Source: an uncultured Candidatus Saccharibacteria bacterium
GTDB lineage: Bacteria > Patescibacteriota > Dojkabacteria > SC72
Direction: 5' to 3'
Assembly: GCA_964514595.1 (NCBI GenBank)
Contig: CAZEQZ010000002.1
Location: forward strand, 185,663-249,662
Length of the DNA: 64,000 nucleotides
Shown here piece by piece: positions 29,860-54,458 of the stretch; within the stretch, counting starts at the first letter, position 1; each line of letters opens with the position of its first letter. The notes beneath the pieces are model-generated. The model worked only from the letters and a program-made list of their open reading frames with translations, made no database searches and had not been told where the DNA came from. The position numbers and the translations under genes are program-made.

Positions 29860-31038
29860 CTATATTTTTACCAAGTATCTTGCACTTACCCACCCTACTA
29901 AATCAGCTCCATACTGTACCTGATACCAACCTTCCTCCTCCCCTAGTAAAATGAAGACAGTACCATCATCTGCACTGTCCAATATTTTACAACTTGACCA
30001 CCTACACTCTCTAATATTCACGAAATTATATGTCGGAGAAGATACTTCCACTAATTGCTTCTCTCCCCGAGAGATTTCAAATTTAACATCAAAAGAGGAT
30101 CCTTCAAATGGCTTTCCTTCAAACTTAAGCAATTCGAACGATTCAGTAGCTTCTCCTAATAAGACTCTTGCTTCCAATTCAAACTCCACCTCCACGGATT
30201 CTCCAGGTAGTATGTTCTTATCCGATACACTCACAGGCTTACTAAAACTTTCCCATTCCTGATTTATTGCAAAGCTACTCTCCTTCCCATCTTTTACAGA
30301 TATATATACTGGATCCCTGTCTGTGAACCAAATAAAGTCATTATTATTCTTAAATTTCACCTTCACCTTTAGCCTTTCTCCTATCTCCAATTGCTCTTCA
30401 TGCACCACCTCTTCTATTCTCGCTCGATATTCTAGGTTCTCCGCTTCATATCCTTCCCAGCCTGAAAGTACTTCCAATACTGAATTAGCAAACTCTCCAG
30501 ATATTTCCTCAGCTGTTATGGTAGATAGTTTTCCTTCTTCCTGGTTAATATTTAGCTTTACTACAGAAAGTTGAGATATTCCCCAATTAGAGGATATCTC
30601 CTCTACCATTTGATTTAAAGAATCGGTAGCCCTATTTGAAAGTATGGAGTTGTTTGACATATATCCTATTGTGACTGCACCTTCCACTTCTCTAAGCTCT
30701 GGATTAGCACCAACACCACCCTCTTTGCCTTGATATATTATCCCATTCTCATCAAGGAGGTATGTATATGGGAGGTCGGAGAAGTGTAGTCTGGTTATAC
30801 TGTAGTAGTAGAGAGTCTTAACCCATTTTGCAGGATCTCTAAGTAGTATGTCGGAATCTGTTGTTACTTGAGTTATGTATATCTTAACTGGATTACTGTA
30901 TATGGTATTAGACTTGTCTGATAGTGAAGTGTCAAATTTCTGACTTTGCGTTGAGTAGTATGAAAATGCCAAAGCAGATGTTGGCTTAAATAGTGCCAAA
31001 GTAAGAAGGAGTGTCAAAAAAAGAATTGTTTTCTTCAT
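29860..31038 (-). CDS. Secreted protein with a degenerate PGRP/amidase_2-like domain and C-terminal bacterial SH3 (SH3b) domain
   Basis: Signal peptide MKKTILFLTLLLTLALFKPTSALA. YTYLLDENGIIYQGKEGGVGAN...TIGYMSNN resembles the amidase_2 core, but the Zn-ligand His residues are replaced. The C-terminal GWYQVQYGADLVGWVSARYL is SH3b-like. Confidence 0.35.
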   Translation of the reverse strand: MKKTILFLTLLLTLALFKPTSALAFSYYSTQSQKFDTSLSDKSNTIYSNPVKIYITQVTTDSDILLRDPAKWVKTLYYYSITRLHFSDLPYTYLLDENGIIYQGKEGGVGANPELREVEGAVTIGYMSNNSILSNRATDSLNQMVEEISSNWGISQLSVVKLNINQEEGKLSTITAEEISGEFANSVLEVLSGWEGYEAENLEYRARIEEVVHEEQLEIGERLKVKVKFKNNNDFIWFTDRDPVYISVKDGKESSFAINQEWESFSKPVSVSDKNILPGESVEVEFELEARVLLGEATESFELLKFEGKPFEGSSFDVKFEISRGEKQLVEVSSPTYNFVNIRECRWSSCKILDSADDGTVFILLGEEEGWYQVQYGADLVGWVSARYLVKI

Positions 31039-31078: not shown

Positions 31079-32122
31079 TTATTCGGGTGCGGGATCTAGT
31101 AACTCTATCTCTTCTGTTTGCTTCTCTATTAAATATTCTGGATTTATACCACATAGATATACTTGTATTTCAGCAAGGTATGTACTTTTGGTAGAATCCA
31201 GCAGTTTTCCAGTTCCTGTTAATTTATACGCAGGGAAGACATATGAGTAATCATAGTTCATAAATACGTATAAATTATCTACGCCTTCAACTTCCAAAGA
31301 TGAGAGTCTAGCAGAAGAACGTACTAAAATATCTTGTTCCCAAAATCTTTCTTCCACAGAGTTTCTCATAAGGTGCATTGGATATTTTGTAAATTTGAGT
31401 ATCTCATCAACTGATATGGTAGGCATCTTCTGTATGGGAACCAATCCTCTCTCAACATCATGAAGAAGAATTGCAAGTGAATACATTCTATTATCCCCCT
31501 CAATACGAATTTCAAATGCATTTCCCTCTAGATATAAAGATCCATACTTAATACCATCCTTTACAAAGAATCCTTTATATAAGTATGAATTCTCGGACTG
31601 CTTCTTTGTCTCTAAAAGCTCTATCTTCTCAATATTAAAATATGTCTTTAAAAATATATCCAAGTCTTTTGCAGAATTAATTTTCATATCTAAGTTAAGT
31701 CCTGTTTGAGATGTAACATAAAATACTCCTGTGTCTTCATCGTATAAGAATGTGTCTGTTTCAAAGGTCTCGTATAATTGATTCTCGTTTGCAATATAAC
31801 GATCGTCCAAATCGTAGAAGTTCTTTATAAAGTTTCTTGCCACAGAGAGATCTGGCTTGTGTAGCTTATATACCATCTGATACTTATCGAATTCTGAGCT
31901 TTCTCCCTGGAGGTTTAATGTAAAATTATCGCTTAATTCCGCAAATGGACTCTCTATGGAGATTATCTCTCCTGCGGGGATATCTTCTTCAACCTTCTTT
32001 GATTTTAGAAAGATTATTGCAATAACAGATAAACCCAGAACAATTCCTATTATTATATACACACCGTAATTTTTTATTATTTTTTTTATTCTATCCATCT
32101 TATCTAGCAAATCCTTTAACAT
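31079..32122 (-). CDS. Bitopic membrane protein (N-terminal TM anchor, extracytoplasmic domain of about 300 aa), unknown function
   Basis: The single hydrophobic helix VYIIIGIVLGLSVIAIIFL follows a basic N-terminus. No catalytic motif was recognised. Confidence 0.4.
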   Translation of the reverse strand: MLKDLLDKMDRIKKIIKNYGVYIIIGIVLGLSVIAIIFLKSKKVEEDIPAGEIISIESPFAELSDNFTLNLQGESSEFDKYQMVYKLHKPDLSVARNFIKNFYDLDDRYIANENQLYETFETDTFLYDEDTGVFYVTSQTGLNLDMKINSAKDLDIFLKTYFNIEKIELLETKKQSENSYLYKGFFVKDGIKYGSLYLEGNAFEIRIEGDNRMYSLAILLHDVERGLVPIQKMPTISVDEILKFTKYPMHLMRNSVEERFWEQDILVRSSARLSSLEVEGVDNLYVFMNYDYSYVFPAYKLTGTGKLLDSTKSTYLAEIQVYLCGINPEYLIEKQTEEIELLDPAPE

Positions 32123-34649
32123 AACTCTTTATCTCAGAATCTAGTTTAGCTGTGCCCGAACTAGAAATACCTTTAGACCAATCTTCCAAGGTCTGTTGAT
32201 CATATCCTCTAGATAACATTGCATCCCTAATCTGTGTTCCAGATTTCACACCATCTATCGTATGAAATTTATATCCTCCATAATTTCCAGAGATTATCTC
32301 AGCTCCCACTTCCATTCCTAGAGGATTTCCATTTAACCCTCCGCTTCTATACTGTACTAGGTGCGTAACCTCATGGACCATGAGACCTTGGAAGTATGAT
32401 AATCCCGCAGAACCCGCCTTTGAAGAATTACATATTATTCCATTATACCTAGCTACACACCAAGCCCATTCACTATACGTACTAGAGAATGTTCCATCAT
32501 CCACAAAGGTCAAAGAAACTCCACTGAGTCCAAATCTTTCTAGGATACTATCGAAGATTTCTTGATAATCGCCTCCCAATAGTTGCCCTATCATATCCTC
32601 CTTCCCTACGGGAGTCCCCGTGGGATCTATTTCATCTATCATATCAGGAGCACCACATGATACTACTTCAAATGGAGCTACATGAGAATGTACCCCCAAA
32701 AGAGAGCTCCCGAATATGATGACAAATCCCGCAAGAGCAACTATTCCCGCTAGGAAATAAACCAAACCCTCCACACCTATCTTAATAGCGTGAGCACTCA
32801 TCTTCATTAAAGGTTGGGATAGTTTGTATACTAACTCAGAAGCAAGGAAACTAATTAATCCTGCGATAGGAGTTCCTACAACCCCAAGTGCAGACGAAAT
32901 TGCTGTAGTGATACCTTTAACTAAGGTTTGTACCCCTCCTTTCAACATCCAATCCTTTACTAAGGCAACTGCTACCGAATTTTTTATACCCAACAATAGT
33001 ACTTTTCCTACAGCATTTCTAACATGAGAAAGAACATGTTTATTTATTAATCCATCTATTTTATCCCTAATTCTTGATATTGTTCCAAATGTCTTATACA
33101 GGTTAGACAACCTCGCATCTTTTTTTAGAAATTTATCTATCATCTCCATTTGTTGAGTAGATACTCTTCCTGCCAAACTTCGTACATATGCATCATCTCC
33201 CTTCTCTAATTCTGCAAGAAATCTAGTCCAATCGAAATTCGATATCTCTCCTAAAATTTGTTTCTTAAACTTTTCCTGCGATCTATACGCTAGATATCCA
33301 AAGCCCTCTCCATCTATCAATGTCTTAACCCAAGCAGCCGGAGAAAGGTAGTAGACAGAATTCATTTTATCGAAGTATGCCTGCTGGAATCGATTAGTTG
33401 CTTCTTTTGCTGCATGGATCTTCAAACTATGCCCCCTTCTTGTAAATGCTTGCTCTTTAGATGGTTGTAACCAATTAATTTGATTATATTTATCTGCAAA
33501 GAATTTCCCGTTAAGAATATTCCCCATAAGGTTTCCGTCTATAAACAAATCTTTTGCAGAATAATACATTCCTTCCCATTGACCTAATTGCCCTGCAAAA
33601 TCTTCGAATCTAGACATTCTGATATCACCCTGTATGCTTCTCATTGAATTTTTTAGTTCCCTTATCTTCACATGCTTGTCTGGGTCGTTACTTCTTTGTA
33701 GTTGAGATATTGCATTAGAGATACTATTTAAATCTCCCTCTAATTTGTTTCTAAATGCTCTTGCAGCTGTTTGATCATATACATTGGCTACAACATCACT
33801 GGCTCTTTGATATTTCTCTGCCTTATCCATATCCCCCGCCATTCTTGCATCTACTGATTTTTTAGAAAGGTTAGCCTTTTCTAAGACGGTATATAGTTCA
33901 CGATTAACAAGTAATTCGTCTCTTATTTTTTCAAAGTTATTATTACTCAAGTGGGTGGAGTAGCTTTGTCTCCATTTTCTATATTGGTTCCACTTCATAT
34001 CCGCCTGTGCATCCCCTAGAGTACCACCGAACATATTTCTAAACTCCTGTCTTGTGAATTCCCTACTATTAGGATCTAGGTATCTTTGTGCTAATTTCTC
34101 ATTTCTGTATGTCACACCAAAGGTGTCGTATTGAGTTCTCATACCTATTGGTTTTTTTGTAAACTCATCTACTTTACCCCCTCTTCCTGCTGCAACCATT
34201 GCTTCTTGAGTATCCTTATCCAATCCATATTTCTTTGCCCACATGTATCCAACTATACCTCTCATTTCCTCCCCTGCCCAAGCTATTCGTTGCTGTTTTC
34301 TAATACCCTCTATCTTCTTGTATTGAGCATCTATGTATGTGCTCGGATTTTCCATCAACTTTTTCAGCTCTCCAAGATTGAACTTGATATTATCTGGAAC
34401 TCTCTTTCCTACACTTACGGTACCCACATCCACATCGAAGGCGTTATTGAAGGCCTCCATTGTCGTCTTATTTACATATAGGAGGGGATTTTCTAGTACA
34501 GCAGTTAAAGCATCAACCATTTCAGAGGAACCATCTACACCAGTGACCTTAACTGGCTTAACTTTATTGGGAGGCTTTTGGGACTCTTCAAATATGAAAT
34601 CAAAAACCGATCCCAGGGCATCTTCGTATTGCTTCTTTTGCTGTGGCAT
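32100..34649 (-). CDS. Large (849 aa) protein: soluble N-terminal region of about 640 aa, cluster of TM helices, C-terminal HExxH zincin-like domain
   Basis: No signal peptide. Hydrophobic helices around residues 640-730 (GLISFLASELVY, LVYFLAGIVALAGFVIIFGSSLL). Motif GLMVHEVTHLVQY with a downstream Glu (GMEVGAE) near the C-terminus. Confidence 0.45.
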   Translation of the reverse strand: MPQQKKQYEDALGSVFDFIFEESQKPPNKVKPVKVTGVDGSSEMVDALTAVLENPLLYVNKTTMEAFNNAFDVDVGTVSVGKRVPDNIKFNLGELKKLMENPSTYIDAQYKKIEGIRKQQRIAWAGEEMRGIVGYMWAKKYGLDKDTQEAMVAAGRGGKVDEFTKKPIGMRTQYDTFGVTYRNEKLAQRYLDPNSREFTRQEFRNMFGGTLGDAQADMKWNQYRKWRQSYSTHLSNNNFEKIRDELLVNRELYTVLEKANLSKKSVDARMAGDMDKAEKYQRASDVVANVYDQTAARAFRNKLEGDLNSISNAISQLQRSNDPDKHVKIRELKNSMRSIQGDIRMSRFEDFAGQLGQWEGMYYSAKDLFIDGNLMGNILNGKFFADKYNQINWLQPSKEQAFTRRGHSLKIHAAKEATNRFQQAYFDKMNSVYYLSPAAWVKTLIDGEGFGYLAYRSQEKFKKQILGEISNFDWTRFLAELEKGDDAYVRSLAGRVSTQQMEMIDKFLKKDARLSNLYKTFGTISRIRDKIDGLINKHVLSHVRNAVGKVLLLGIKNSVAVALVKDWMLKGGVQTLVKGITTAISSALGVVGTPIAGLISFLASELVYKLSQPLMKMSAHAIKIGVEGLVYFLAGIVALAGFVIIFGSSLLGVHSHVAPFEVVSCGAPDMIDEIDPTGTPVGKEDMIGQLLGGDYQEIFDSILERFGLSGVSLTFVDDGTFSSTYSEWAWCVARYNGIICNSSKAGSAGLSYFQGLMVHEVTHLVQYRSGGLNGNPLGMEVGAEIISGNYGGYKFHTIDGVKSGTQIRDAMLSRGYDQQTLEDWSKGISSSGTAKLDSEIKSYVKGFAR

Positions 34650-34662
34650 AGATATTTAAAAA

Positions 34663-35970
34663 CTATTTAAACATACTTCCAACAAATGGAACTTTTCCAA
34701 ATCCTTCCTTAATTGCCGCAGCTGCATCTGCACCACTCTTGGATGCTGTGGGAGGAATTATTGCTTTTGCCAAGGCAGGAGCTTGAACTGCAGCATAGAT
34801 AGCTATTAATTTTGCTAAAGCGATTAGCATAGGGCCCATATCTCCTATGCTTGCCTGATCACCTGTAAGAGATTTAGGAAAATCTATTGATATGTTTTTT
34901 GTTTCTAGATAGAAGGGTATGTTAACTATGGCAAATGCTATTGGAAAGACTAGGGCATTACGAAATATTGATTTAAATATATTAACTATACTAGCATCAT
35001 TTCCTGGTAAGGAGCCTAACATTATTGATAATGGAGCAACTATCACATTCAACAGTATAGCTAAGTATGATTTAACTAATGTAATCCAAAGCTTTATTGC
35101 TCCAACTAAGGCCGCTCCAGCAATAATTATTCCCAATATAATGGGGATTAATCCGGCTACCGCATTCAGTGTTGCTAACCCCAAGACTATTCCAACTAGA
35201 GATATTGAGGAACCTGTCTGAGCTCCTCCACTCCAAGTTACTGCCCAAATATCATGTATTGGGACCCCACTTCCTAGAAGACTTTTTATTACTGTCATAA
35301 GGACACCGCATATGTCAATAATTACTCCCGCTATGGCAAAACTAAAGGTTACCAAGACTAATGATATTACAACCCTTGGAAGTGTATTACCTAATGTTAC
35401 CAAGGTCTGACCTCCCAGTTTACTTCTAAACATTATCATAAAGCCTACTGCAATCATCACTACAACAAAGGCAAGGTACGCTATATTTCTTGTAAAGGAC
35501 CATATTTCATCAACACCGGTACTCCTAATATCATCATAACCTGAAGCATATATAGATTGTGTCTCTTTATATCCTGGAACCCATTCCCTTGAGAGATGTG
35601 CTATGACATCAATCCTTGGTTGAGAATCAAACATGGCTGTAACTTGACGTTCAGCGGTACCTAATAAACCGTATTTCATCTGATCAGGATAATTTCCTGT
35701 TTGTATCCTAGGATTCGCTTCCGTACACTCTGGACAAAGTATAGCAAGTATGAATTCTCCTATTCCCGTAATGATTTTCCCTACAAACTGGGCTATACTT
35801 TCCCCTACAAAGCCAGTCAGATCTCCAACAAAGGAAACTATATGTTCCCATGTGGTCTTTGTGTCTATGGGTTCACCTAGCGTATCTTGGGCCAGTATAG
35901 GGGAACTTAAGCTTGTGATGAATACAAATAGTGTGGTCATCAATACAACAATTATCCTAAGAGCTTTCAT
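34663..35970 (-). CDS. Polytopic membrane protein, TrbL/VirB6-like topology (signal peptide, extracytoplasmic loop with a Cys pair, about 6 TM helices, Ala-rich C-terminus)
   Basis: Hydropathy pattern. CPECTEANP loop. TM-rich Gly/Ala/Ile core. The family assignment is by architecture only. Confidence 0.35.
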   Translation of the reverse strand: MKALRIIVVLMTTLFVFITSLSSPILAQDTLGEPIDTKTTWEHIVSFVGDLTGFVGESIAQFVGKIITGIGEFILAILCPECTEANPRIQTGNYPDQMKYGLLGTAERQVTAMFDSQPRIDVIAHLSREWVPGYKETQSIYASGYDDIRSTGVDEIWSFTRNIAYLAFVVVMIAVGFMIMFRSKLGGQTLVTLGNTLPRVVISLVLVTFSFAIAGVIIDICGVLMTVIKSLLGSGVPIHDIWAVTWSGGAQTGSSISLVGIVLGLATLNAVAGLIPIILGIIIAGAALVGAIKLWITLVKSYLAILLNVIVAPLSIMLGSLPGNDASIVNIFKSIFRNALVFPIAFAIVNIPFYLETKNISIDFPKSLTGDQASIGDMGPMLIALAKLIAIYAAVQAPALAKAIIPPTASKSGADAAAAIKEGFGKVPFVGSMFK

Positions 35971-35997: not shown

Positions 35998-37440
35998 TTA
36001 TATTAACAAATAATGCTTTGCTGATTCTCTGTTTAATTCCAAAACTTCATTCCAATACTCTATAAACGTTGGAATAAAGTCTTCTTGACCAGGAGCCTTG
36101 TCTTTAGCCTGCATTCTATAATTCATTAGGAAAGGTGTCGCATCCCATAGACACCACACATCAAATTCTCCTGTTGCTCCATTATCATAAGTTGCTATAC
36201 CACTACATTGTGTAGCTACATAGAACATTAAACTATCTTCAATATTATTAGAGACCTCCTTCTTAGAGGCTGTTTGAAAAGGAGCCTGTGTAGCAAGGTA
36301 TGTGTATGTCATAAAAGCATTAGAACATATACCATTATTACAATCATATGTGTTCCCAAATATTGGTGTCATTTCTACCATGAGACCCCTAGATCTAGGA
36401 CATTTCTCACGCTTAATAGATTTATTCCCCTCTTCATCTATAATTTCAACACCATCTTCATCACAGTAGTCCCATTGATTGGAGCTAAACGTTTGTCTAA
36501 AAAGACCCTTGAAGCGTGTATATATTGATCTTTGGTCACACGCCTTCCATACCCCATCATTAGTACCTAAAAAAGTAACACTAACACTACTCAAACACTC
36601 CGCTTCTCGTTGATAATCATAATTATCTCCTCCTGGGATTTGCTGTCTCGTAAAGCCACCCCCGCTATCTCCCCTCAGATTACTAGCCCCAACGTTGAAA
36701 TCGCTTGTACTAACCTCACGAGGACAGTTACACGCGGGATCATTTTCCGCATTATCTATGTTATATCTTCCATCTCTCTTTTCCTGCTCCTGATTAGCAG
36801 AGACAGTTAATTGACCAGTAACTTCAAATGCCTGTCTTTCAGTAGCTGGCAACTCTTTCACGAAGGCATCGGACTGATATGGAGCCATAGTCTTTTCCAC
36901 TATCGCACCTTCCCACTCTCCACTAGAAGAATACGACGGATCATCCACTCTAATCTGTCTGTTACTATCCTTCATAGTATATGGACCTAACCAGAGAGCG
37001 AGAGGATATGTGACCATAGTAAGTTCAAAATCAACTATATTTTCCACCTCAACTTCATCTCCGGAGAATCCCACAGGATCACCTCCATAATTAGGAACTT
37101 CATAGTGAATCTGTGCACCACCAGATGAGCAAAGCCTTCTCTCCAAATCTACAATATTAGCAGGTTGTCTACACAAAGATGATATCTCTCCCTTAACCTC
37201 TCCTCCCTCTGCATACTCGGTAGCGTTACTATCTTCCAAAAATACATACTCTACATTCTCTGTTACTATATTTTCTTCCCTACTAGGAGAGCATGTTGAG
37301 CACTGTTGCGCATCTTTATTCAACCACCTCCCATCGAACGAAACCTTTATACTTTTAGCTAGGTATACTGAGAAAAGAGCAAAGAATAGCATGCCTAAAA
37401 GAAACAAGATCCCATTTTTCCTACTATTTTTTATACTCAT
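35998..37440 (-). CDS. Secreted cysteine-rich protein (480 aa, about 17 Cys)
   Basis: N-terminal signal anchor (ILFLLGMLFFALFSVYLA). Cys clusters (CSTCSP, PACNCPRE, DYCDEDG, YDCNNGICSN). No known catalytic motif. Confidence 0.4.
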   Translation of the reverse strand: MSIKNSRKNGILFLLGMLFFALFSVYLAKSIKVSFDGRWLNKDAQQCSTCSPSREENIVTENVEYVFLEDSNATEYAEGGEVKGEISSLCRQPANIVDLERRLCSSGGAQIHYEVPNYGGDPVGFSGDEVEVENIVDFELTMVTYPLALWLGPYTMKDSNRQIRVDDPSYSSSGEWEGAIVEKTMAPYQSDAFVKELPATERQAFEVTGQLTVSANQEQEKRDGRYNIDNAENDPACNCPREVSTSDFNVGASNLRGDSGGGFTRQQIPGGDNYDYQREAECLSSVSVTFLGTNDGVWKACDQRSIYTRFKGLFRQTFSSNQWDYCDEDGVEIIDEEGNKSIKREKCPRSRGLMVEMTPIFGNTYDCNNGICSNAFMTYTYLATQAPFQTASKKEVSNNIEDSLMFYVATQCSGIATYDNGATGEFDVWCLWDATPFLMNYRMQAKDKAPGQEDFIPTFIEYWNEVLELNRESAKHYLLI

Positions 37441-39293
37441 AATGCTCTAATCATTTTACCCCCTTTCCTTTGTCTTGTCACACTTCCTTTATATGTGACT
37501 ACCCCTATAGAGATAAGGGCAAAGGAAAGCAATATTAAGTATACTACATTATCCAATATTCCTGTTTTTGGAGTTTCTATCCCCGAATCTACTTCATACT
37601 CTGAATCGTCTGGAGTAACTACTAAATCAGGATTTACACCCGTACTATGTCCTAAGATTCCGTAGTTCTGAAGTAGCTCTACCCTTGTATACCCCACTCC
37701 TGAGCTAGAATTCCCCTCTACGGATATTTCAACATCCCTATCACTTATGCCTTGCATTTTCTCTGTATGTGTACTTGCTGAGAATGTTGTTACCAAATTT
37801 ACATTAAGCGAATCTTCAGACGTATACTCAAAGTATGAGGTACCGTCCTGAACTCTACTTTCGGCTATTGATAGTATCCATTTACCATTCTCATCAACTA
37901 GGGTAGAGAGTTTTAGACTTTCTCCCTTACTTCCTGCACCATCTTCATCCTTAATATGTACCGTAACTACTACTTCCTTATGCTCTGGCATACCATCTAT
38001 CACTCCAGTCACAGATTCGAATGGTGGAGGAGATGTAAGTGTAGAGAAAGTTTTCACTACATATTTATTCCCCCCATTATCGTATTTATTATCCCCTGAT
38101 TCTATCTCAAAGAAATACTCAGTATCTGGTTGTAGTCTACTTAGAACTACAGAGTGGATATAGTAGTTACTTTTTGTTGTAAGGCCATCTCTTTCATCAG
38201 TAGCTTGACTAGACAAAGAATCACGGGAAGTTCCATAGTTAATATGACCTTTCTCTTTATTCTCTGATATCCAAAGAACCGTAAAGCCTGTGTCTGTTAG
38301 GTTTGTTGTTTGCACACTTGCAGCACCAGACACACCCGAGACTGCTGATCCATCTCCCGTGACCATATCTATCCATTGCAAATTATGTACTATCCTAAAT
38401 ACTCTTCCTGTGTTTCCAGTTGGAGTATCATCTGTCTCCTGGGCTGGAGGGGTTGTCGGAGTTGTTGGCGTTGTCGGTTGTGTGGGCTCTTCTGGTTCTG
38501 CTACAAATGCCTCCAACATAGATACAGGAGGAAAGTCGTTGTATAGAGAGGAATTATCGCCAATTGTTAAGGCATACACATCCTTCAATTTACCACTGCT
38601 ATCAAATAGTTCGGAGTATGTACCTTCCTGTACTGCACCTTTATTAGGACCGGAGATAGCAACAAGAACTATGTTAGTAGAATTGGTAACTACAATAGGG
38701 GTCTTATTGGCAATACTTCTAAATGCAGAGAGGTCTATAACCCAATTACCTCCTGTGGGAATGGTGGTTGATACAGGATACGCAGATTTATCTTTAAGAA
38801 GGGCATATATTATTACATCGTCTCCCACTACCCCCTTAATTCCTCCATGTATGGGATTGGGAGTTGCAGACGTCTCTGTTATTGGAGCAGTTTTGAATGC
38901 AAAGTTTTTGTTTCCTTCACTACGATACTTCTCTCTATCCGATACTATTACAAATTCGTATTGAGTATTTGGATCTAAGTCTTCAATATCGATATGGTGC
39001 GTGTATCTTCTTCTATTACCTCTTTTTGTATCAACAATGGGACTTTTTTCTATTCCATTTTGGATAGGTATTACAGAACCAAATGACTGTACATCTGTGA
39101 CCCAGCTTACGGTAACGGCACTTGTAGTTAATTTACTAATAACAACATTACGAGGTTGTGCCTCTGCTGACGCTCTCGTTATGAGTTGGTATGCTTGGTA
39201 TGATGCAAAAACTACCAAAGGTATTCCTATTAACAGTATCCCTATTATCGTGAGATCTCTTCTTCTTTTACTAGGTACAGTAGCTATTCTCAT
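37437..39293 (-). CDS. Cell-surface protein: N-terminal TM, two purple-acid-phosphatase-N-type fibronectin-III-like domains, Pro/Thr linker, C-terminal TM anchor with basic tail
   Basis: VVISKLTTSAVTVSWVTD...YTHHIDIEDLDPNTQYEFVI and FTVLWISENKEKGHINYG...YYIHSVVLSRLQPDTEYFFEI. PTQPTTPTTPTTPP linker. The C-terminal ETPKTG + LILLSFALISIGVV + RQRKGGK. Confidence 0.5.
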   Translation of the reverse strand: MRIATVPSKRRRDLTIIGILLIGIPLVVFASYQAYQLITRASAEAQPRNVVISKLTTSAVTVSWVTDVQSFGSVIPIQNGIEKSPIVDTKRGNRRRYTHHIDIEDLDPNTQYEFVIVSDREKYRSEGNKNFAFKTAPITETSATPNPIHGGIKGVVGDDVIIYALLKDKSAYPVSTTIPTGGNWVIDLSAFRSIANKTPIVVTNSTNIVLVAISGPNKGAVQEGTYSELFDSSGKLKDVYALTIGDNSSLYNDFPPVSMLEAFVAEPEEPTQPTTPTTPTTPPAQETDDTPTGNTGRVFRIVHNLQWIDMVTGDGSAVSGVSGAASVQTTNLTDTGFTVLWISENKEKGHINYGTSRDSLSSQATDERDGLTTKSNYYIHSVVLSRLQPDTEYFFEIESGDNKYDNGGNKYVVKTFSTLTSPPPFESVTGVIDGMPEHKEVVVTVHIKDEDGAGSKGESLKLSTLVDENGKWILSIAESRVQDGTSYFEYTSEDSLNVNLVTTFSASTHTEKMQGISDRDVEISVEGNSSSGVGYTRVELLQNYGILGHSTGVNPDLVVTPDDSEYEVDSGIETPKTGILDNVVYLILLSFALISIGVVTYKGSVTRQRKGGKMIRAL

Positions 39294-39341: not shown

Positions 39342-42300
39342 TTATCTTACACTAGGATGCCAGTTACCTACACCCTTTATAACCCTTACGAAGTATGATC
39401 TTTGTTTTTCTATAGGAAAATCAAAGCCGTAGGTTTGAGCACTACCCTCTACAGAAGTATCTCTTTGAAAACCTTCATACGACCCCTTACTCTCTTGCCA
39501 CCTAGTAACATTATCTGCATCAAAATCTATACCTTTGTAGTTAGCTATGTCTTCTAATAATGATTTAGCTGTGTATGATTTAGCCTTAGAACCGTATACC
39601 CCTACTAAGTTCCATCCAGGAATTAGTAGTATGGGTGCAGAATCTCCTATTTGTTCATATTTTATTTCTTTACCAAAGAGAGAAACTCTTATATCCTTTT
39701 TAACATTTAACAGATATCCCTCACCTGGGAGTATCCTAAAGTCATTCTGATCATAGTTACCTGCATTAGCTCCAACTGAGATCCATTTACCATTTTCTAA
39801 TTTTGATATAGAGGAAACAGAATTACCAATGACACTGTTTAGATATTTAATAAGACCGGAAGCTTTATTTAATTCAGATCTTTCATTTATAAAAGGAAAG
39901 GATATCAAATTGAAACCTTTTTTAAGGTCATACCTGTATTCTCTTTGTATTGTAATAACCTCTAAGGTTTCAAAATCTTTACTTAGATTAGTATCTCCTG
40001 AGTCTATTATTCCGTTACCATTAGAGTCCAAGTATACATCAGCACCTTTTGAGTCTGTATCATTTATTATAGCTAAGTAATAATCACCATTTACATTGAA
40101 TATATGCACCCCTCTTCCTACCCTCTCCAAGATGTCTTCTTTTGTATTTATAATATATGACTCGAACTCCTCTGTCTCTTCAGCAAAAACTTTCCCTAAG
40201 ATACTAAATCCTTTGCTCTCAAAGCTTAAGCTTTTATCTTCATTTGTATTCTGAATACTACACCTAGTGTATCTCCCTGAGCCCGAGCCACATACTCCAA
40301 AGTCTTCTATATACGTTTTTATAGCAAAATTTCTATCTTGTGTTGCTTTCATACTCTCGTATTTTTCCTGAGTAATAGGGACCCACTCTTCCTCTGCTGT
40401 AAATTCGTTAATTAATATAGTGGCTACTACAACTCCCCCTACCACAAGAGCTGCTGTTCCCAATCCGACACCCGTTGTTGCCGCTGCTGCTTCTGTAGTT
40501 ATATATATTGTTGGCGCCTGACTAACCGCAAGAGCTGAAGTAGAAGTAGATGCGGCTGTGGTAGCTAGCGATGAGCCTGTGTATACTGTAAGTGCTTTGG
40601 TCCCTACGTAGGGGACAATAGGATACAAACTAGCAGAGGCATATGGCATATCATCAAGTATCTTCTGTATTTCAGGATCTGGTTCTTTTGCATTATTTTC
40701 TTTAAACTTTGCCCATAGTCGATCTACTGCACCTATACTATCACAGTGATAATACATACCTGTATCCGCATTATGATATAGAGTACCCGCTTGCCCATCA
40801 CATTCCTTTCCTGACAAATTGTCAGCCGGAGGGACTTGTAGAAAAGGCATTGCCTGAGCACCAGCTTCTGCATCTATACCAACCCCTTCATCTGGACTCA
40901 TAGAAATACCGTACTCATGTCCTTCGATCCCCCAACGTTTCGTTTCTCCATTACATTTAAGACTACCATCTATGGTAACATAGCCATCACTAAACCAACA
41001 TTTATATGTATAACTATAACAATCCCGTGTAGTACCTGTATTAAATCCTCCACATAGACCTCTACTGTCGGCTTCATCCGCCATTCTATCCCTTAATTCA
41101 TCTGTATATTTATCTTCCGTATCTGGATGTACTTTCACTCTTCCATCTGGGGTACATAAGCACATTTGTGCTGGACCGATGGGTTTTTGTTCATTTGCAC
41201 ACGCACAATCACACTCTTGACTATTACTATATCCACACATCCCCATGTGTCCACAAATATCACCTACACATGTACCTTGTACTCTATTAAAATTAATCTC
41301 ACAATCAGAAGTAAAAACGTCAAAGGTCCCAAGACCAGAAACATTAATTCTTTTACACATTGGAATATCTACCCCATCTATTTTTTTTGTACATGCGTCG
41401 TTAAAACAACTTCCCAGTTCACAACTAACTGAACCTTGCCCCCCACTTGTATCTCTTCCATTAGAACCTGCAAATATCTGTTCATTTATATCCGCATCTA
41501 TAGGGTCCGTACAAGAACCATCAAGCGGATCTAAACAATACCCACCATCATTACTAGGTTCAAATTTAGGAGTACAATCGGGATCCCCCCACCCCAATCT
41601 AGAATCACTACAAACTTCACATTGATTATTATCTCCTCCATCTGTATCCTCCGCACTCACTCCGAAAACAAAAGCTCTTAAATCTATACCATTGAAATCC
41701 TTATTTGTATTAACTACCTCCTTATTCTCTTTCCCAAAAGAATTACCCTCATATATGACACTCTCATCTAACTCATCATCCATTCTCATATCTATAGCCT
41801 TTGCAGGTGCCTTATTATATACATCTATCTCAGTACTCCATCTCCCTTTCCACGTATTCTCTATCGTTAACTTAAGTTTTATATATGTACCTTCATAATC
41901 CTTTACACTATCCCAAAAAGTTGTACCATCCTCCATATATGCATTCATAATATCTAAATACCATCCACCTTCTTCATTTGTAATAGATGAAATCATCTCA
42001 GATTCCACTTGATATATCTCTTCATATACCGTCGCATACACTATTGCATCAGAAGGCCTCTCATAGCCAACCACATCATCTACGTAGTACCTAACAACTC
42101 CATATGCTGGTTCAGGAGTCCTAATTTCCTCAATCTCTTTTCCTGTCTTAAAAGAGTATTCCCCAGTATTCTCAGAAGAAACCCTCTTAAACACATTCCC
42201 ATCCCCAATCATGAAATAGTACTCTTTATTAGATTCCAAACCTCGTATGGTAGCATGATGGACATAATATTCACCCATATCTGTAACTACTATATCGGTA

Positions 42301-42731
42301 AATATCTCCCCTGCATCCACACTACTACTTCCTTCCTCTGATACTTTCTCAGAATTCCTCTGTGCCTCATCTAATTCAGCCTTAGTATAGTCTCTATCAT
42401 CATATGCTAACAAAGAGTTTCCAATCTTGGGCATAAAGGGAAGAATAAAATTTCTCTCCTGATACATAACCATCCCAGGAGTTGGCTCTTCTGTAATCCA
42501 AGATACTGTTGCTGATCCTGCAGTCACATTACTAACCATTACCCTATATGGCACAAAAGAGGATGCCTTATACCATCCCCATATACCTATTCCTATAACG
42601 GCTACTAAACAAACAACTAATACAGGAATAATTACTTTAAGGAAATTAAACTTACCCTTTTCTTTAACCTCAACTTGCTGAACCTGCGGTTCTACGACTG
42701 AAGGAGGAGTCTCTTGATTACCTTCGTACAT
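39342..42731 (-). CDS. Giant (1129 aa) surface protein: N-terminal TM, PAP-N-type Fn3-like domain, long Cys-rich extracellular module, internal hydrophobic segment, C-terminal domain
   Basis: MVSNVTAGSATVSWITEEPTPGMVMYQE...YYVHHATIRGLESNKEYYFMIGDG is paralogous to the neighbouring 618-aa protein. More than 40 Cys lie between residues about 365-660. A TM-like GVGLGTAALVVGGVVVATIL segment follows. Confidence 0.5.
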   Translation of the reverse strand: MYEGNQETPPSVVEPQVQQVEVKEKGKFNFLKVIIPVLVVCLVAVIGIGIWGWYKASSFVPYRVMVSNVTAGSATVSWITEEPTPGMVMYQERNFILPFMPKIGNSLLAYDDRDYTKAELDEAQRNSEKVSEEGSSSVDAGEIFTDIVVTDMGEYYVHHATIRGLESNKEYYFMIGDGNVFKRVSSENTGEYSFKTGKEIEEIRTPEPAYGVVRYYVDDVVGYERPSDAIVYATVYEEIYQVESEMISSITNEEGGWYLDIMNAYMEDGTTFWDSVKDYEGTYIKLKLTIENTWKGRWSTEIDVYNKAPAKAIDMRMDDELDESVIYEGNSFGKENKEVVNTNKDFNGIDLRAFVFGVSAEDTDGGDNNQCEVCSDSRLGWGDPDCTPKFEPSNDGGYCLDPLDGSCTDPIDADINEQIFAGSNGRDTSGGQGSVSCELGSCFNDACTKKIDGVDIPMCKRINVSGLGTFDVFTSDCEINFNRVQGTCVGDICGHMGMCGYSNSQECDCACANEQKPIGPAQMCLCTPDGRVKVHPDTEDKYTDELRDRMADEADSRGLCGGFNTGTTRDCYSYTYKCWFSDGYVTIDGSLKCNGETKRWGIEGHEYGISMSPDEGVGIDAEAGAQAMPFLQVPPADNLSGKECDGQAGTLYHNADTGMYYHCDSIGAVDRLWAKFKENNAKEPDPEIQKILDDMPYASASLYPIVPYVGTKALTVYTGSSLATTAASTSTSALAVSQAPTIYITTEAAAATTGVGLGTAALVVGGVVVATILINEFTAEEEWVPITQEKYESMKATQDRNFAIKTYIEDFGVCGSGSGRYTRCSIQNTNEDKSLSFESKGFSILGKVFAEETEEFESYIINTKEDILERVGRGVHIFNVNGDYYLAIINDTDSKGADVYLDSNGNGIIDSGDTNLSKDFETLEVITIQREYRYDLKKGFNLISFPFINERSELNKASGLIKYLNSVIGNSVSSISKLENGKWISVGANAGNYDQNDFRILPGEGYLLNVKKDIRVSLFGKEIKYEQIGDSAPILLIPGWNLVGVYGSKAKSYTAKSLLEDIANYKGIDFDADNVTRWQESKGSYEGFQRDTSVEGSAQTYGFDFPIEKQRSYFVRVIKGVGNWHPSVR

Positions 42732-42802: not shown

Positions 42803-43126
42803 CTACTTCTTCAAACCTGAGAAAAAATCTCCTACTATTGATATTGTACTACCTATCTTCTTAATGGGTATTAGTATAGCTTCATTTATCTTCCCAACAG
42901 TACCTTTTACTGTGGACACCATATCCTGCACATCATCTACTATGAGAGTAGCCTGTTCCATTATCTTGTTAGCATTCTTTATTATCTCTCTGGAATCTTT
43001 AACAGCATCCTTCGATTCCCTTATGAGCATAGCCAAATAGTATAGAACCAAGGAGAACATAATCGTAATGGCCGATACAATAATCATCCAAAATATCGCC
43101 GGTATTTCTGACATAGTAATAATCAT
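42803..43126 (-). CDS. Small membrane protein, DUF948-like (N-terminal TM plus coiled coil)
   Basis: A 107-aa protein. An N-terminal hydrophobic helix is followed by a charged helical segment (KDAVKDSREIIKNANKIMEQATLIVDDVQDMVSTVKG). Confidence 0.4.
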   Translation of the reverse strand: MIITMSEIPAIFWMIIVSAITIMFSLVLYYLAMLIRESKDAVKDSREIIKNANKIMEQATLIVDDVQDMVSTVKGTVGKINEAILIPIKKIGSTISIVGDFFSGLKK

Positions 43127-53584: not shown

Positions 53585-53663
53585 AACAGAATGATTTTAG
53601 CAAAGTATGTATATATTTGCTACCCATTTTATCTACAATCTTAAATCTGCTAATATCTATACT

Positions 53664-54458
53664 ATGGAAAATAGTTGGAACGTACAAACACATAGTGAAA
53701 ACAAAGTACGAAGAATACGCATATGGATATCTGCTGTATTGGCACTGTCTGGTTTAGTTATAGTTTCCAGCCAGGTTATACCTTTGACAAAATCATACGT
53801 GGAGGGAGTGGTGGAACAAAGGAGAGTTGACATAAAGGTGGATCCTGTACCAGAGTCGTATAAAAAATATATAGAAGAAGAGTTCGCATATTATGATCCT
53901 GGGAAGAGCTACTTTGCAAATCTTTCCCAGCAGTTGGGGAATTTAGACATTACAGGACAATACTCATATAACCCAGATACCAAGACACAAAGAGAAGTTC
54001 TAATAGACAGAGAGTACAAGACGGATATGTCCGTCACTATTGAGAGTGTAGGGATTAAAAATATTAAAATATCATCGAACGTGGAGAGTTCTAATGAATC
54101 TGTATACAATCAATATCTTAAAAATGGTGTTGCCCACTTTAAAGGTACACCTCTTCCGGGAGATGGAGGAAATTCGTTCATATATGGGCATAGCGCTGTT
54201 GAATCATTTTTTAGTAGACATAGGGATTTGCCTGAAACAATATTTTCTAGACTGAATGATATAGATATTGGACAAAAGGTTGTTGTAAATAGAGAGGATA
54301 AAGTATTAGAATATATCGTAAGGAACAAGAAGATTGTAGATCCTGATGATTTTACAATCCTACAACCTTTACACAACAAAGAAACAGTAACATTAATGAC
54401 TTGTTGGCCTTTGGGTATAGGAACTAAGAGATTAATAGTAGTTGCTGAAAGGAGATAA
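53664..54458 (+). CDS. Sortase (cysteine transpeptidase); the ORF is open from 53607, but the second Met at 53664 is the more plausible start
   Basis: N-terminal TM anchor. Catalytic His in NSFIYGHSAV. TLxTC motif VTLMTCWP. Conserved Arg nine residues later (TKRLIVVAE). Confidence 0.7.
   Translation: MENSWNVQTHSENKVRRIRIWISAVLALSGLVIVSSQVIPLTKSYVEGVVEQRRVDIKVDPVPESYKKYIEEEFAYYDPGKSYFANLSQQLGNLDITGQYSYNPDTKTQREVLIDREYKTDMSVTIESVGIKNIKISSNVESSNESVYNQYLKNGVAHFKGTPLPGDGGNSFIYGHSAVESFFSRHRDLPETIFSRLNDIDIGQKVVVNREDKVLEYIVRNKKIVDPDDFTILQPLHNKETVTLMTCWPLGIGTKRLIVVAERR

Follow-up and report, generated by a model that had tools for sequence, protein, structure and literature searches.

We analyzed a 64,000-nucleotide stretch of DNA, referred to here as the window, from an uncultured Candidatus Saccharibacteria bacterium that the GTDB places in the Dojkabacteria (assembly GCA_964514595.1, contig CAZEQZ010000002.1, positions 185,663 to 249,662 of the forward strand). 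Our subject is a gene of the minus strand, g849, which occupies positions 32100..34649 of the window and encodes an 849-residue protein that, judging from the list of open reading frames (ORFs), its homologues and synteny, is a bitopic envelope protein. The gene is the sixth of a tightly packed eight-gene minus-strand operon that consists, in order, of g107, g1129, g618, g480, g435, g849, g347, and g392. This order, beside the genes for PcrA and EF-G, is kept in every related locus for which enough DNA is available (approximately 40 loci, 36 of them from a one-genome-per-species collection), and the other loci maintain it without extra genes inserted.

We found 28 full-length homologues of g849 with lengths of approximately 850 residues. 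The N-terminal 40 residues of the protein (pattern, MPxKKKQYEDALGSVFDFIF) match the beginning of every homologue in the alignment, which shows that the ATG start codon assigned to g849 is right. In an alignment of 62 sequences, these 40 residues (34530..34649, minus strand) stand out as a conserved peptide with the pattern ...SVFDFIF...K..KP.K.TG.DG, in which D17, F18, F20, K25, K29, and P32 show little or no variation, and AlphaFold2 (AF2) models the segment as a helix with low confidence. Scans of Pfam, NCBIfam, and PHROG returned no match to g849, and the same scans of all operon proteins gave no family for g347, g435, or g480 either. No signal peptide was found at the N-terminus of g849. 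A preliminary description of this DNA, made from the letters alone, had stated that the protein lacks a signal peptide and belongs to no family that could be named, and both statements are borne out. Our literature searches found no description of the operon or of the HExxH-containing domain at the C-terminus of g849, which we refer to as the head.

The N-terminal domain of g849, which is helical and which we take to be cytoplasmic, spans residues 1-545 (33015..34649, minus strand). When given 62 homologues, AF2 predicts a compact and confident model of the N-terminal region that is mainly helical and includes two small beta hairpins (predicted local distance difference test score [pLDDT], 83.3; predicted template modeling score [pTM], 0.72). 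The preliminary description of a coiled-coil-rich region of 640 residues is therefore overstated, since the model is a compact all-helical domain apart from the two hairpins. A Foldseek search of the BFVD with this model yielded nothing significant (best E value, 0.08; TM-score, approximately 0.1), and neither a PDB sequence search with the profile of the N-terminal region nor a PHROG search with the region produced a match. As modeled, the N-terminal region appears to be a new fold without a known structural relative.

The N-terminal domain is followed by a hydrophobic region, residues 546-654 (32688..33014, minus strand), in which Kyte-Doolittle scans and family-wide charge point to two doubtful amphipathic or hydrophobic helices and one firm transmembrane helix. 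The firm helix, residues 625-653 (32691-32777, minus strand), is the only segment that is strongly hydrophobic in every g849 orthologue according to these scans. Segment 578-603 is moderately hydrophobic, and segment 546-564 is rich in Lys and, over the family as a whole, lacks hydrophobic character (mean Kyte-Doolittle value, 0.26; 4.4 Lys plus Arg). Thus, the three to four membrane helices first proposed come down to one firm transmembrane helix and one or two doubtful ones. Family-wide, the loop before the last helix carries 2.6 Lys plus Arg, while the 25 residues after the helix carry 0.6 Lys plus Arg and 3.7 Asp plus Glu. Cysteine is absent from the approximately 660 N-terminal residues of most orthologues, whereas their tails of approximately 195 residues contain 8-9. 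Because of this positive-inside charge pattern and the distribution of Cys, we infer an N-in, C-out topology in which the N-terminal region of approximately 620 residues is cytoplasmic and the tail is outside. The hydropathy, charge, and Cys statistics in this way lend support to the earlier proposal that the HExxH module and the large N-terminal region lie on opposite sides of the membrane.

Directly after the transmembrane helix, the alignment reveals a juxtamembrane motif, SHVAP (residues 655-659; 32673..32687, minus strand), which is among the most conserved features of g849. P659 is invariant and H656 is nearly so among 62 sequences, and the motif is a candidate processing or docking site. 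Next comes an acidic, Pro/Gly-rich linker, residues 660-690 (32580..32672, minus strand), which is predicted to be disordered from both pLDDT and the alignment: pLDDT is below 50 over residues 1-29 of the model of the C-terminal region, and the linker varies in length and sequence between homologues.

The head itself, residues 691-849 (32103..32579, minus strand), is a predicted zincin metallopeptidase domain of the gluzincin type for which there is no Pfam model. Alignment and model together locate two motifs within it. The first is the putative zinc-binding and catalytic motif HEVTH at residues 759-763 (32361..32375, minus strand), which comprises H759, E760, and H763 and is followed by Q766. 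The second is E780-V-G-A-E784 (32298..32312, minus strand), which would supply the third zinc ligand from a glutamate helix with an ExxxD/E signature. HEVTH is the sole HExxH sequence among the eight operon proteins, as originally claimed, and the chance expectation of such a sequence in g849 is 0.009. A Glu had also been reported approximately 24 residues downstream of the motif; this Glu is E780, which follows H759 by 21 residues, in adequate agreement with the reported spacing, and a further acidic residue is found at position 784.

To define the family to which the head belongs, we searched 1.84 billion representative proteins exhaustively with a profile built from an alignment of three tails. 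This search returned 83 proteins at E < 1e-3, 62 of them below 1e-10, and conservation was counted over 79 representatives with no more than 50% mutual identity. H759, E760, and H763 are present in all 79 representatives and E780 in 78 of 78. Q766 is found in 74/79, G782 and A783 in 74-75 of 78, and Asp or Glu at position 784 in 75/79; Y793 (77/78) and F795 (75/78) are conserved to a similar extent. The signature of the head family that follows from these counts is therefore HExxHxxQ-x13-E[W]GA[D/E]. This is the gluzincin pattern, which in thermolysin and neprilysin consists of a Glu that binds zinc and, four positions further on, an Asp, both carried by the "glutamate helix" (ExxxD). The head contains a conserved Cys pair, C731/C740, in 75-76 of 76 representatives, which also speaks for a location outside the membrane. 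The head encoded in the window lacks a second Cys pair, at positions 816 and 836, where Cys occurs in approximately 90% of the family, as well as the common Cys at position 723, and it has 3 Cys compared with 8-9 in most orthologue tails. The heads of P0003 and P0010, on the other hand, retain every Cys pair.

AF2 modeling of the head from a 33-sequence alignment gave a pLDDT of 85.7 and a pTM of 0.82. After approximately 30 disordered residues, the model consists of a backing helix, a three-stranded sheet, the HExxH helix, and the E780 helix, with HExxH on a predicted helix at model positions 96-115 and the E780 motif on a predicted helix at positions 122-133. The model thus has the beta-sheet subdomain and the backing helix ahead of the active-site helix that mark a zincin fold, along with the conserved HExxH helix and the conserved Glu on a downstream helix that mark the gluzincins (MEROPS clan MA(E)). 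The preliminary description had made its zincin-like assignment depend on the HExxH motif lying in a zincin fold and on its residues being conserved among orthologues, and the assignment holds on both counts. In a structural comparison with the head model, the figures for known structures are 8.1 for projannalysin, 8.1 for the SprT domain of Spartan, 7.3 for an M32 carboxypeptidase, 7.2 for proabylysin, 6.8 for selecase, and 4.6 for the VgrG2b effector domain, and M1 aminopeptidases, M48, and thermolysin stand lower than selecase in the same listing. The minigluzincins (projannalysin, proabylysin, and selecase) and the minimal zincins of the SprT/Spartan type share only 10-14% identity with the head and have no sequence-level relationship to it. 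Furthermore, the head has features of its own in a conserved GGYxF hairpin, three helices at the C-terminus, and disulfides, and it is extracytoplasmic and membrane-tethered by our topology, whereas those proteins are archaeal cytosolic peptidases or act in DNA-protein crosslink repair. With thermolysin-like gluzincins (M4 and M13) and clostridial collagenases (M9), the head has in common the HExxH motif and the ExxxD/E signature, here EWGA[D/E].

In sequence searches, the similarity of the head to known families did not go beyond single motifs. A PDB sequence search with the tail alone found no match, and a PDB search with the tail profile found only a motif-level match to the clostridial collagenase ColH (LFRHEYTHYLQ; E value, 0.05). 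The only Pfam family that was matched repeatedly is PF13699 (DUF4157/eCIS_core), with sub-threshold matches over the HExxHxxQ helix in 5/33 members (best E value, 0.018). DUF4157 is likewise a small domain with an HExxH motif; it has been linked to toxins and, in mycobacteria, to ripC, a gene for an NlpC/P60 hydrolase (PMC12067865). The likeness has limits, since the matches are sub-threshold and cover only 17 of 79 profile positions, and there are no extracellular contractile injection system (eCIS) genes at this locus. g849 itself scores 11.8-11.9 bits against a gathering threshold of 22 (E value, 0.27; profile positions 62-78 of 79), and we rejected its membership in PF13699. Taken together, sequence and model argue that the head is a new family of gluzincin-type zinc metallopeptidases within the known zincin fold.

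The tail position of g849 is not always occupied by this head. Most g849 orthologues have the N-terminal region of approximately 650 residues in common with g849 but carry an M23 peptidase at the tail, as indicated by a conserved HLHLE motif, by precomputed PF01551 matches, and by a match in one representative (P0002) at an E value of 7e-4. Pfam scans detect no M23 domain (PF01551) in g849 itself; the zincin replaces M23 in the tail position and is unrelated to it. A third tail type, in proteins of approximately 1170 residues, consists of a lysozyme-like region and a CHAP domain (PF05257; E value, 3.5e-6). Longer members of the HExxH type carry a lysozyme-like insert between the transmembrane helix and the zincin, with the motif HESGASNY or MEGGMR and a weak Glucosaminidase match (E value, 0.08). 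Such an insert is paired with M23 in P0015, and M23 and HExxH occur within one protein in P0105 and P0107. In other lineages, homologues of the operon protein g1129 (P0094 and P0104) carry the HExxH domain internally. M23 and CHAP domains are almost exclusively peptidoglycan hydrolases. The zincin thus takes the place of the peptide cutter in what looks like a wall hydrolase of modular design. That the same tail position holds M23 or a lysozyme-like region with CHAP in orthologues is the chief argument, albeit an indirect one, for a cell-wall substrate of the HExxH head. The initial guess of a peptidoglycan-metallopeptidase-like domain gains strong, if indirect, support from these orthologues.

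Three further observations concern the distribution of these tails. The locus of P0094 (encoded at L045, 9686-12715) is shorter, with three unknown genes after the one for P0094, and lies near FtsW and MurG. Two contigs of the metagenome-assembled genome (MAG) CAYRDH01 (L016 and L020) each have a copy with the third tail type, of approximately 1170 residues, together with a downstream gene of 175 residues; the two copies could be due to strain heterogeneity or duplication. On a groundwater contig (L044, 957-2366; P0071) and its neighbors, proteins of approximately 470 residues with an N-terminal transmembrane helix, an ectodomain, and the same HExxH domain are encoded beside a GatD-type gene, which on L044 encodes GatD_N and asparaginase domains. 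GatD is typical of archaea, and the HExxH domain may be shared with DPANN-like archaea.

The gene downstream of g849, g347 (31079..32122, minus strand), overlaps it by 23 nt and encodes a 347-residue type II membrane protein with an N-terminal transmembrane helix and an ectodomain, for which Pfam, NCBIfam, and PDB searches returned no match. The g347 protein of the window matches the product of the downstream gene in all HExxH-type loci tested (5/5, plus L042) with 24-33% identity and E values of 1e-21 to 1e-56, and the g849 bodies of those loci are only 24-38% identical to the window body. The closest relative of the window, L006, is of the M23 type. Its g435, g849 body, and g392 are 66%, 53%, and 74% identical to their counterparts in the window, and yet a counterpart of g347 is not detectable there (20.8% identity over 231 residues; E value, 0.004). 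In the four HExxH loci examined (the window, L001, L007, and L039), the nearest neighbor of the N-terminal body is always an M23 locus. The flanking genes g435 and g392, the latter with 51-74% identity across loci, follow a species-like tree, whereas head type and g347 run against it. Because g347 homologues track head type and not the operon phylogeny, the head and the downstream gene appear to travel together as a cassette, with the SHVAP motif and the start of g392 as its boundaries; on the 5' side, the exchange boundary falls right after SHVAP.

Between M23-type and HExxH-type loci, the proteins encoded downstream are nevertheless distant homologues, with 22-29% identity over approximately 230 residues. 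Such homology fits a conserved partner that co-evolves with the head better than it fits unrelated immunity genes. Given its co-variation with head type, g347 is most likely a cognate regulator, inhibitor, or docking partner of the head. Pairs with a similar layout have been described, namely the VgrG2b metallopeptidase toxin of a type VI secretion system with its immunity protein (PMC6899460) and a Listeria metzincin with a TIMP-like inhibitor (PMC8235301). In each of them, a zincin of the wall compartment is paired with a cognate binder, as we propose for g849 and g347.

The remaining genes place g849 among proteins of the cell envelope. On one side of the cassette is g392 (29860..31038, minus strand), which encodes a protein with a signal peptide, an N-terminal region like that of peptidoglycan recognition proteins (PGRPs), an immunoglobulin-like middle, and a C-terminal SH3_3 domain (E value, 2.2e-9). 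Residues 50-147 of this protein give a series of weak PGRP (amidase_2 fold) matches with a best E value of 0.044; the protein is possibly an amidase that has degenerated or else a wall binder encoded by the operon. Directly upstream of g849, and always adjacent to it, is g435 (34663..35970, minus strand), which encodes a polytopic membrane protein with a signal peptide according to its hydrophobicity profile and which has no match in Pfam, NCBIfam, or the PDB, including VirB6/TrbL. Further upstream, g480 (35998..37440, minus strand) encodes an N-terminally anchored, Cys-rich ectoprotein, and g618 (37437..39293, minus strand) encodes an N-anchored protein with two fn3-like domains (Pur_ac_phosph_N, E value 2.3e-17; fn3, E value 3.4e-8) and, at its C-terminus, TPKTG, a transmembrane helix, and a basic tail. 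The arrangement of [T/I]PxTG, a transmembrane helix, and a Lys/Arg tail is found at the C-terminus of 22 of the 29 g618-type ORFs examined, and it reads as a sorting signal of the sortase type whose motif is not LPXTG. The window also carries a sortase gene, at 53607-54458 on the plus strand, 14 kb from g618. The first large gene of the operon, g1129 (39342..42731, minus strand), encodes an ectoprotein that is anchored by its N-terminus and has an fn3-like domain as well as a Cys-rich region. The small gene g107 (42803..43126, minus strand) encodes a single-pass membrane protein homologous to the product of a gene of 89-106 residues that lies between g1129 and g618 elsewhere. In the window g107 is upstream of g1129, but in most loci it is between g1129 and g618 (e.g., L001, 4899-5219; L002, 4892-5161), which is a local gene-order change inside an otherwise fixed operon.

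Promoter-like sites over the operon are fewer than in shuffled sequence, and no intergenic terminator was found within it. Homologues carry the names Candidatus Dojkabacteria or WS6, and we take the operon to be a Dojkabacteria-specific, vertically inherited cell-envelope operon. The DNA of the window is chromosomal, with approximately 36% G+C and a ribosomal-protein region, and also encodes EF-G, PcrA, PNPase, IF-2, NusA, DnaJ, AlaRS, MltG/YceG, an LCP protein, and a sortase. At the operon we found no secretion ATPase, no type IV secretion system (T4SS) signature, and no phage gene.

On balance, we think it somewhat probable that g849 is a membrane-tethered, probably peptidoglycan-directed gluzincin with g347 as its cognate partner. 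On this account, the cytoplasmic part of the protein would be a Cys-free, basic, helical region of approximately 620 residues that combines the N-terminal domain with the doubtful amphipathic helices 546-603. The single transmembrane helix 625-653 would cross the membrane and lead, by way of SHVAP, into the disordered linker of approximately 30 residues, which would tether the 160-residue catalytic head outside the membrane. Zinc would be bound by H759 and H763 of HEVTH and by E780 on the next helix, with E760 as the general base and the acidic residue at 784 in the position of the thermolysin-like ExxxD. The head would cut cell-wall peptide bonds, whether in peptidoglycan stems, in cross-bridges, or in a wall-linked protein, and the combination of a lysozyme-like insert with the HExxH head in longer relatives would represent the classic pairing of a glycan cutter with a peptide cutter. 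The ectoprotein g347 would bind the head as a specific regulator, inhibitor, or docking partner. The least certain step is the role, which may be a locally controlled opening or remodeling of the cell's own wall for an operon-encoded surface complex that would include the sortase-anchored fn3 protein and the SH3/PGRP-like wall binder, with the cytoplasmic domain supplying positioning or control. Our analysis shows the gene with its conserved gluzincin signature and predicted zincin fold, the conserved envelope operon, the alternative M23 and CHAP heads, and the co-variation of head type with g347; the topology, the wall substrate, the binding by g347, and the role in local wall opening are the parts that we propose by inference.

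Several points weigh against this account. To our knowledge, known peptidoglycan metallopeptidases are of the LAS type (M15, M23, and M74) and not HExxH zincins, and a protein substrate is therefore quite possible. The HExxH domain also occurs in the proteins of approximately 470 residues from what looks like an archaeon, and an archaeon would not make peptidoglycan itself. The inserts are only weakly identified as lysozyme-like, and g849 lacks the second Cys pair present in approximately 90% of the family. The topology stands on hydropathy, charge, and Cys statistics, with the status of segment 578-603 doubtful.

An alternative that we consider unlikely is that g849 is a polymorphic-toxin-like weapon whose N-terminal body delivers or presents a swappable hydrolase (zincin, M23, or CHAP), perhaps released at SHVAP, against the wall of a host or competitor, with g347 as the immunity protein. 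The exchange is confined to the C-terminal head and the gene after it, which move together and contrary to the tree of the remaining locus, and exchange of a C-terminal head together with an adjacent gene is the hallmark described for polymorphic toxins (PMC3482391). The 23-nt overlap of g849 and g347, the faint resemblance of the head to DUF4157, which has ties to eCIS and polymorphic toxins, and the fact that Patescibacteria are mostly episymbionts (PMC12102498) are all in keeping with such a weapon. The preliminary description had also likened g849 to a polymorphic-toxin-type layout, and the likeness stands as far as a conserved N-terminal body with alternative heads (HExxH, M23, and lysozyme-like plus CHAP) and a downstream gene that co-varies with head type are concerned. 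It fails in that the searches turned up neither a trafficking domain of a known kind (LXG, Rhs, PT-HINT, and so on) nor a secretion ATPase, and in that the partners of g849 remain homologous across heads, unlike the unrelated immunity proteins of toxins with differing folds. Moreover, no arrays of orphan cassettes were seen, every locus has a single copy in a housekeeping, core-genome neighborhood, and the head is tethered by only approximately 30 residues to what would be the producer's own membrane.

Rather improbable, in our estimation, is a role as a surface-protein protease, in which the zincin head processes or sheds envelope proteins (the fn3 and Cys-rich ectoproteins of the operon, or an S-layer) or host surface proteins. 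All characterized fold relatives of the head are proteases or peptidases that act on proteins and peptides, the clostridial collagenases are the only PDB entries with which it shares even a sequence motif, and the domain is found within g1129-like ectoproteins and in a probable archaeon. A protease of this kind does not sit well with orthologues that replace the head by M23 and CHAP, or with its combination with lysozyme-like inserts.

A VirB1-like hydrolase, or a ConG/PrgH-like part, of a T4SS of the Gram-positive type is very improbable. No zincin head is known among hydrolases of the TraG, PrgK, and CwlT type, and CwlT of ICEBs1 is, like TraG and PrgK, a monoderm two-domain peptidoglycan hydrolase attached to an envelope machine. 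TraG of pIP501 and PrgK of pCF10 (PMC12102498) resemble the g849 family in being membrane-anchored, in having glycan-cutting and peptide-cutting modules, and in presumably opening the wall locally for a surface apparatus; they differ in having a short N-terminal anchor and a T4SS locus with VirB4, whereas g849 has a 600-residue cytoplasmic domain and no VirB4. That monoderm T4SS hydrolases combine glycosidase and peptidase domains, that patescibacterial VirB1 homologues sometimes have M23 (PMC12102498), and that the polytopic g435 lies directly upstream of g849 all favor such a system. Against this, no signature of VirB4, of the type IV coupling protein (T4CP, VirD4), of VirB6/TrbL, of VirB8, or of a pilin is present within the operon, anywhere in the 64-kb window, or at the syntenic loci, and no T4SS genes occur within +/-10 kb of the loci whose called genes carry Pfam annotation. 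The SLT, CHAP, VirB6, TrbL, and PrgH models of Pfam and NCBIfam match neither g849 nor g435 at E < 0.1, and known VirB1-like proteins have no 600-residue cytoplasmic domain. The loci lie, moreover, in a housekeeping neighborhood, and for want of any ATPase or VirB signature we rejected the ConG/PrgH analogy that the preliminary description had drawn.

We give next to no credence to, and rejected, a domesticated phage tape-measure-like protein, in which a long helical body and hydrophobic segments would precede a C-terminal muralytic domain, for although the overall layout is similar and the length typical of tape-measure proteins, there is no PHROG or Pfam tape-measure match, Foldseek against the BFVD yields nothing better than the match cited above, AF2 predicts a compact domain and not an extended rod, and the operon is conserved on the chromosome with no other phage genes nearby. 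Phage T5 Pb2 is a tape-measure protein of that very description. In its presumed mode of action, g849 is comparable to the membrane-anchored two-module hydrolases of monoderm envelope machines and to enzyme-inhibitor pairs such as VgrG2b or the Listeria metzincin with their partners, but it belongs to none of these families.

Patescibacteria account for much of the diversity of bacteria, and almost nothing is known of the biology of their envelope. If the head does cut peptidoglycan, wall enzymes, which are mostly of the LAS, NlpC/P60, CHAP, and amidase types, would gain a zincin family. A new Pfam family would be justified for the head, and another for the N-terminal domain of 650 residues with its confident predicted fold. 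The cassette-like exchange of the head and its partner within a vertically inherited operon suggests either autolysis control or antagonism in episymbionts, and the locus is a module open to experiment, with its conserved operon, the clear active-site residues of the head, and the cognate partner predicted for it. As a speculation in which we place little confidence, the operon might encode a previously undescribed envelope-spanning apparatus of Dojkabacteria and related Patescibacteria, possibly at the site of contact with a host cell, in which g849 couples a new cytoplasmic domain across the membrane to an exchangeable wall-cutting head held in check by its co-evolving partner g347. The head would in that case be the first zincin-fold family of peptidoglycan endopeptidases, shared with DPANN-like archaea as a means of breaching walls.

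Elsewhere in the window, gene orientation and GC skew both switch sign at approximately 53.6-54 kb: genes to the left lie on the minus strand and those to the right on the plus strand, and the cumulative GC skew is at its minimum there. The intergenic gap at approximately 53.6 kb measures only 22 bp, and the switch there could be due to coding-strand bias and not to a replication origin.

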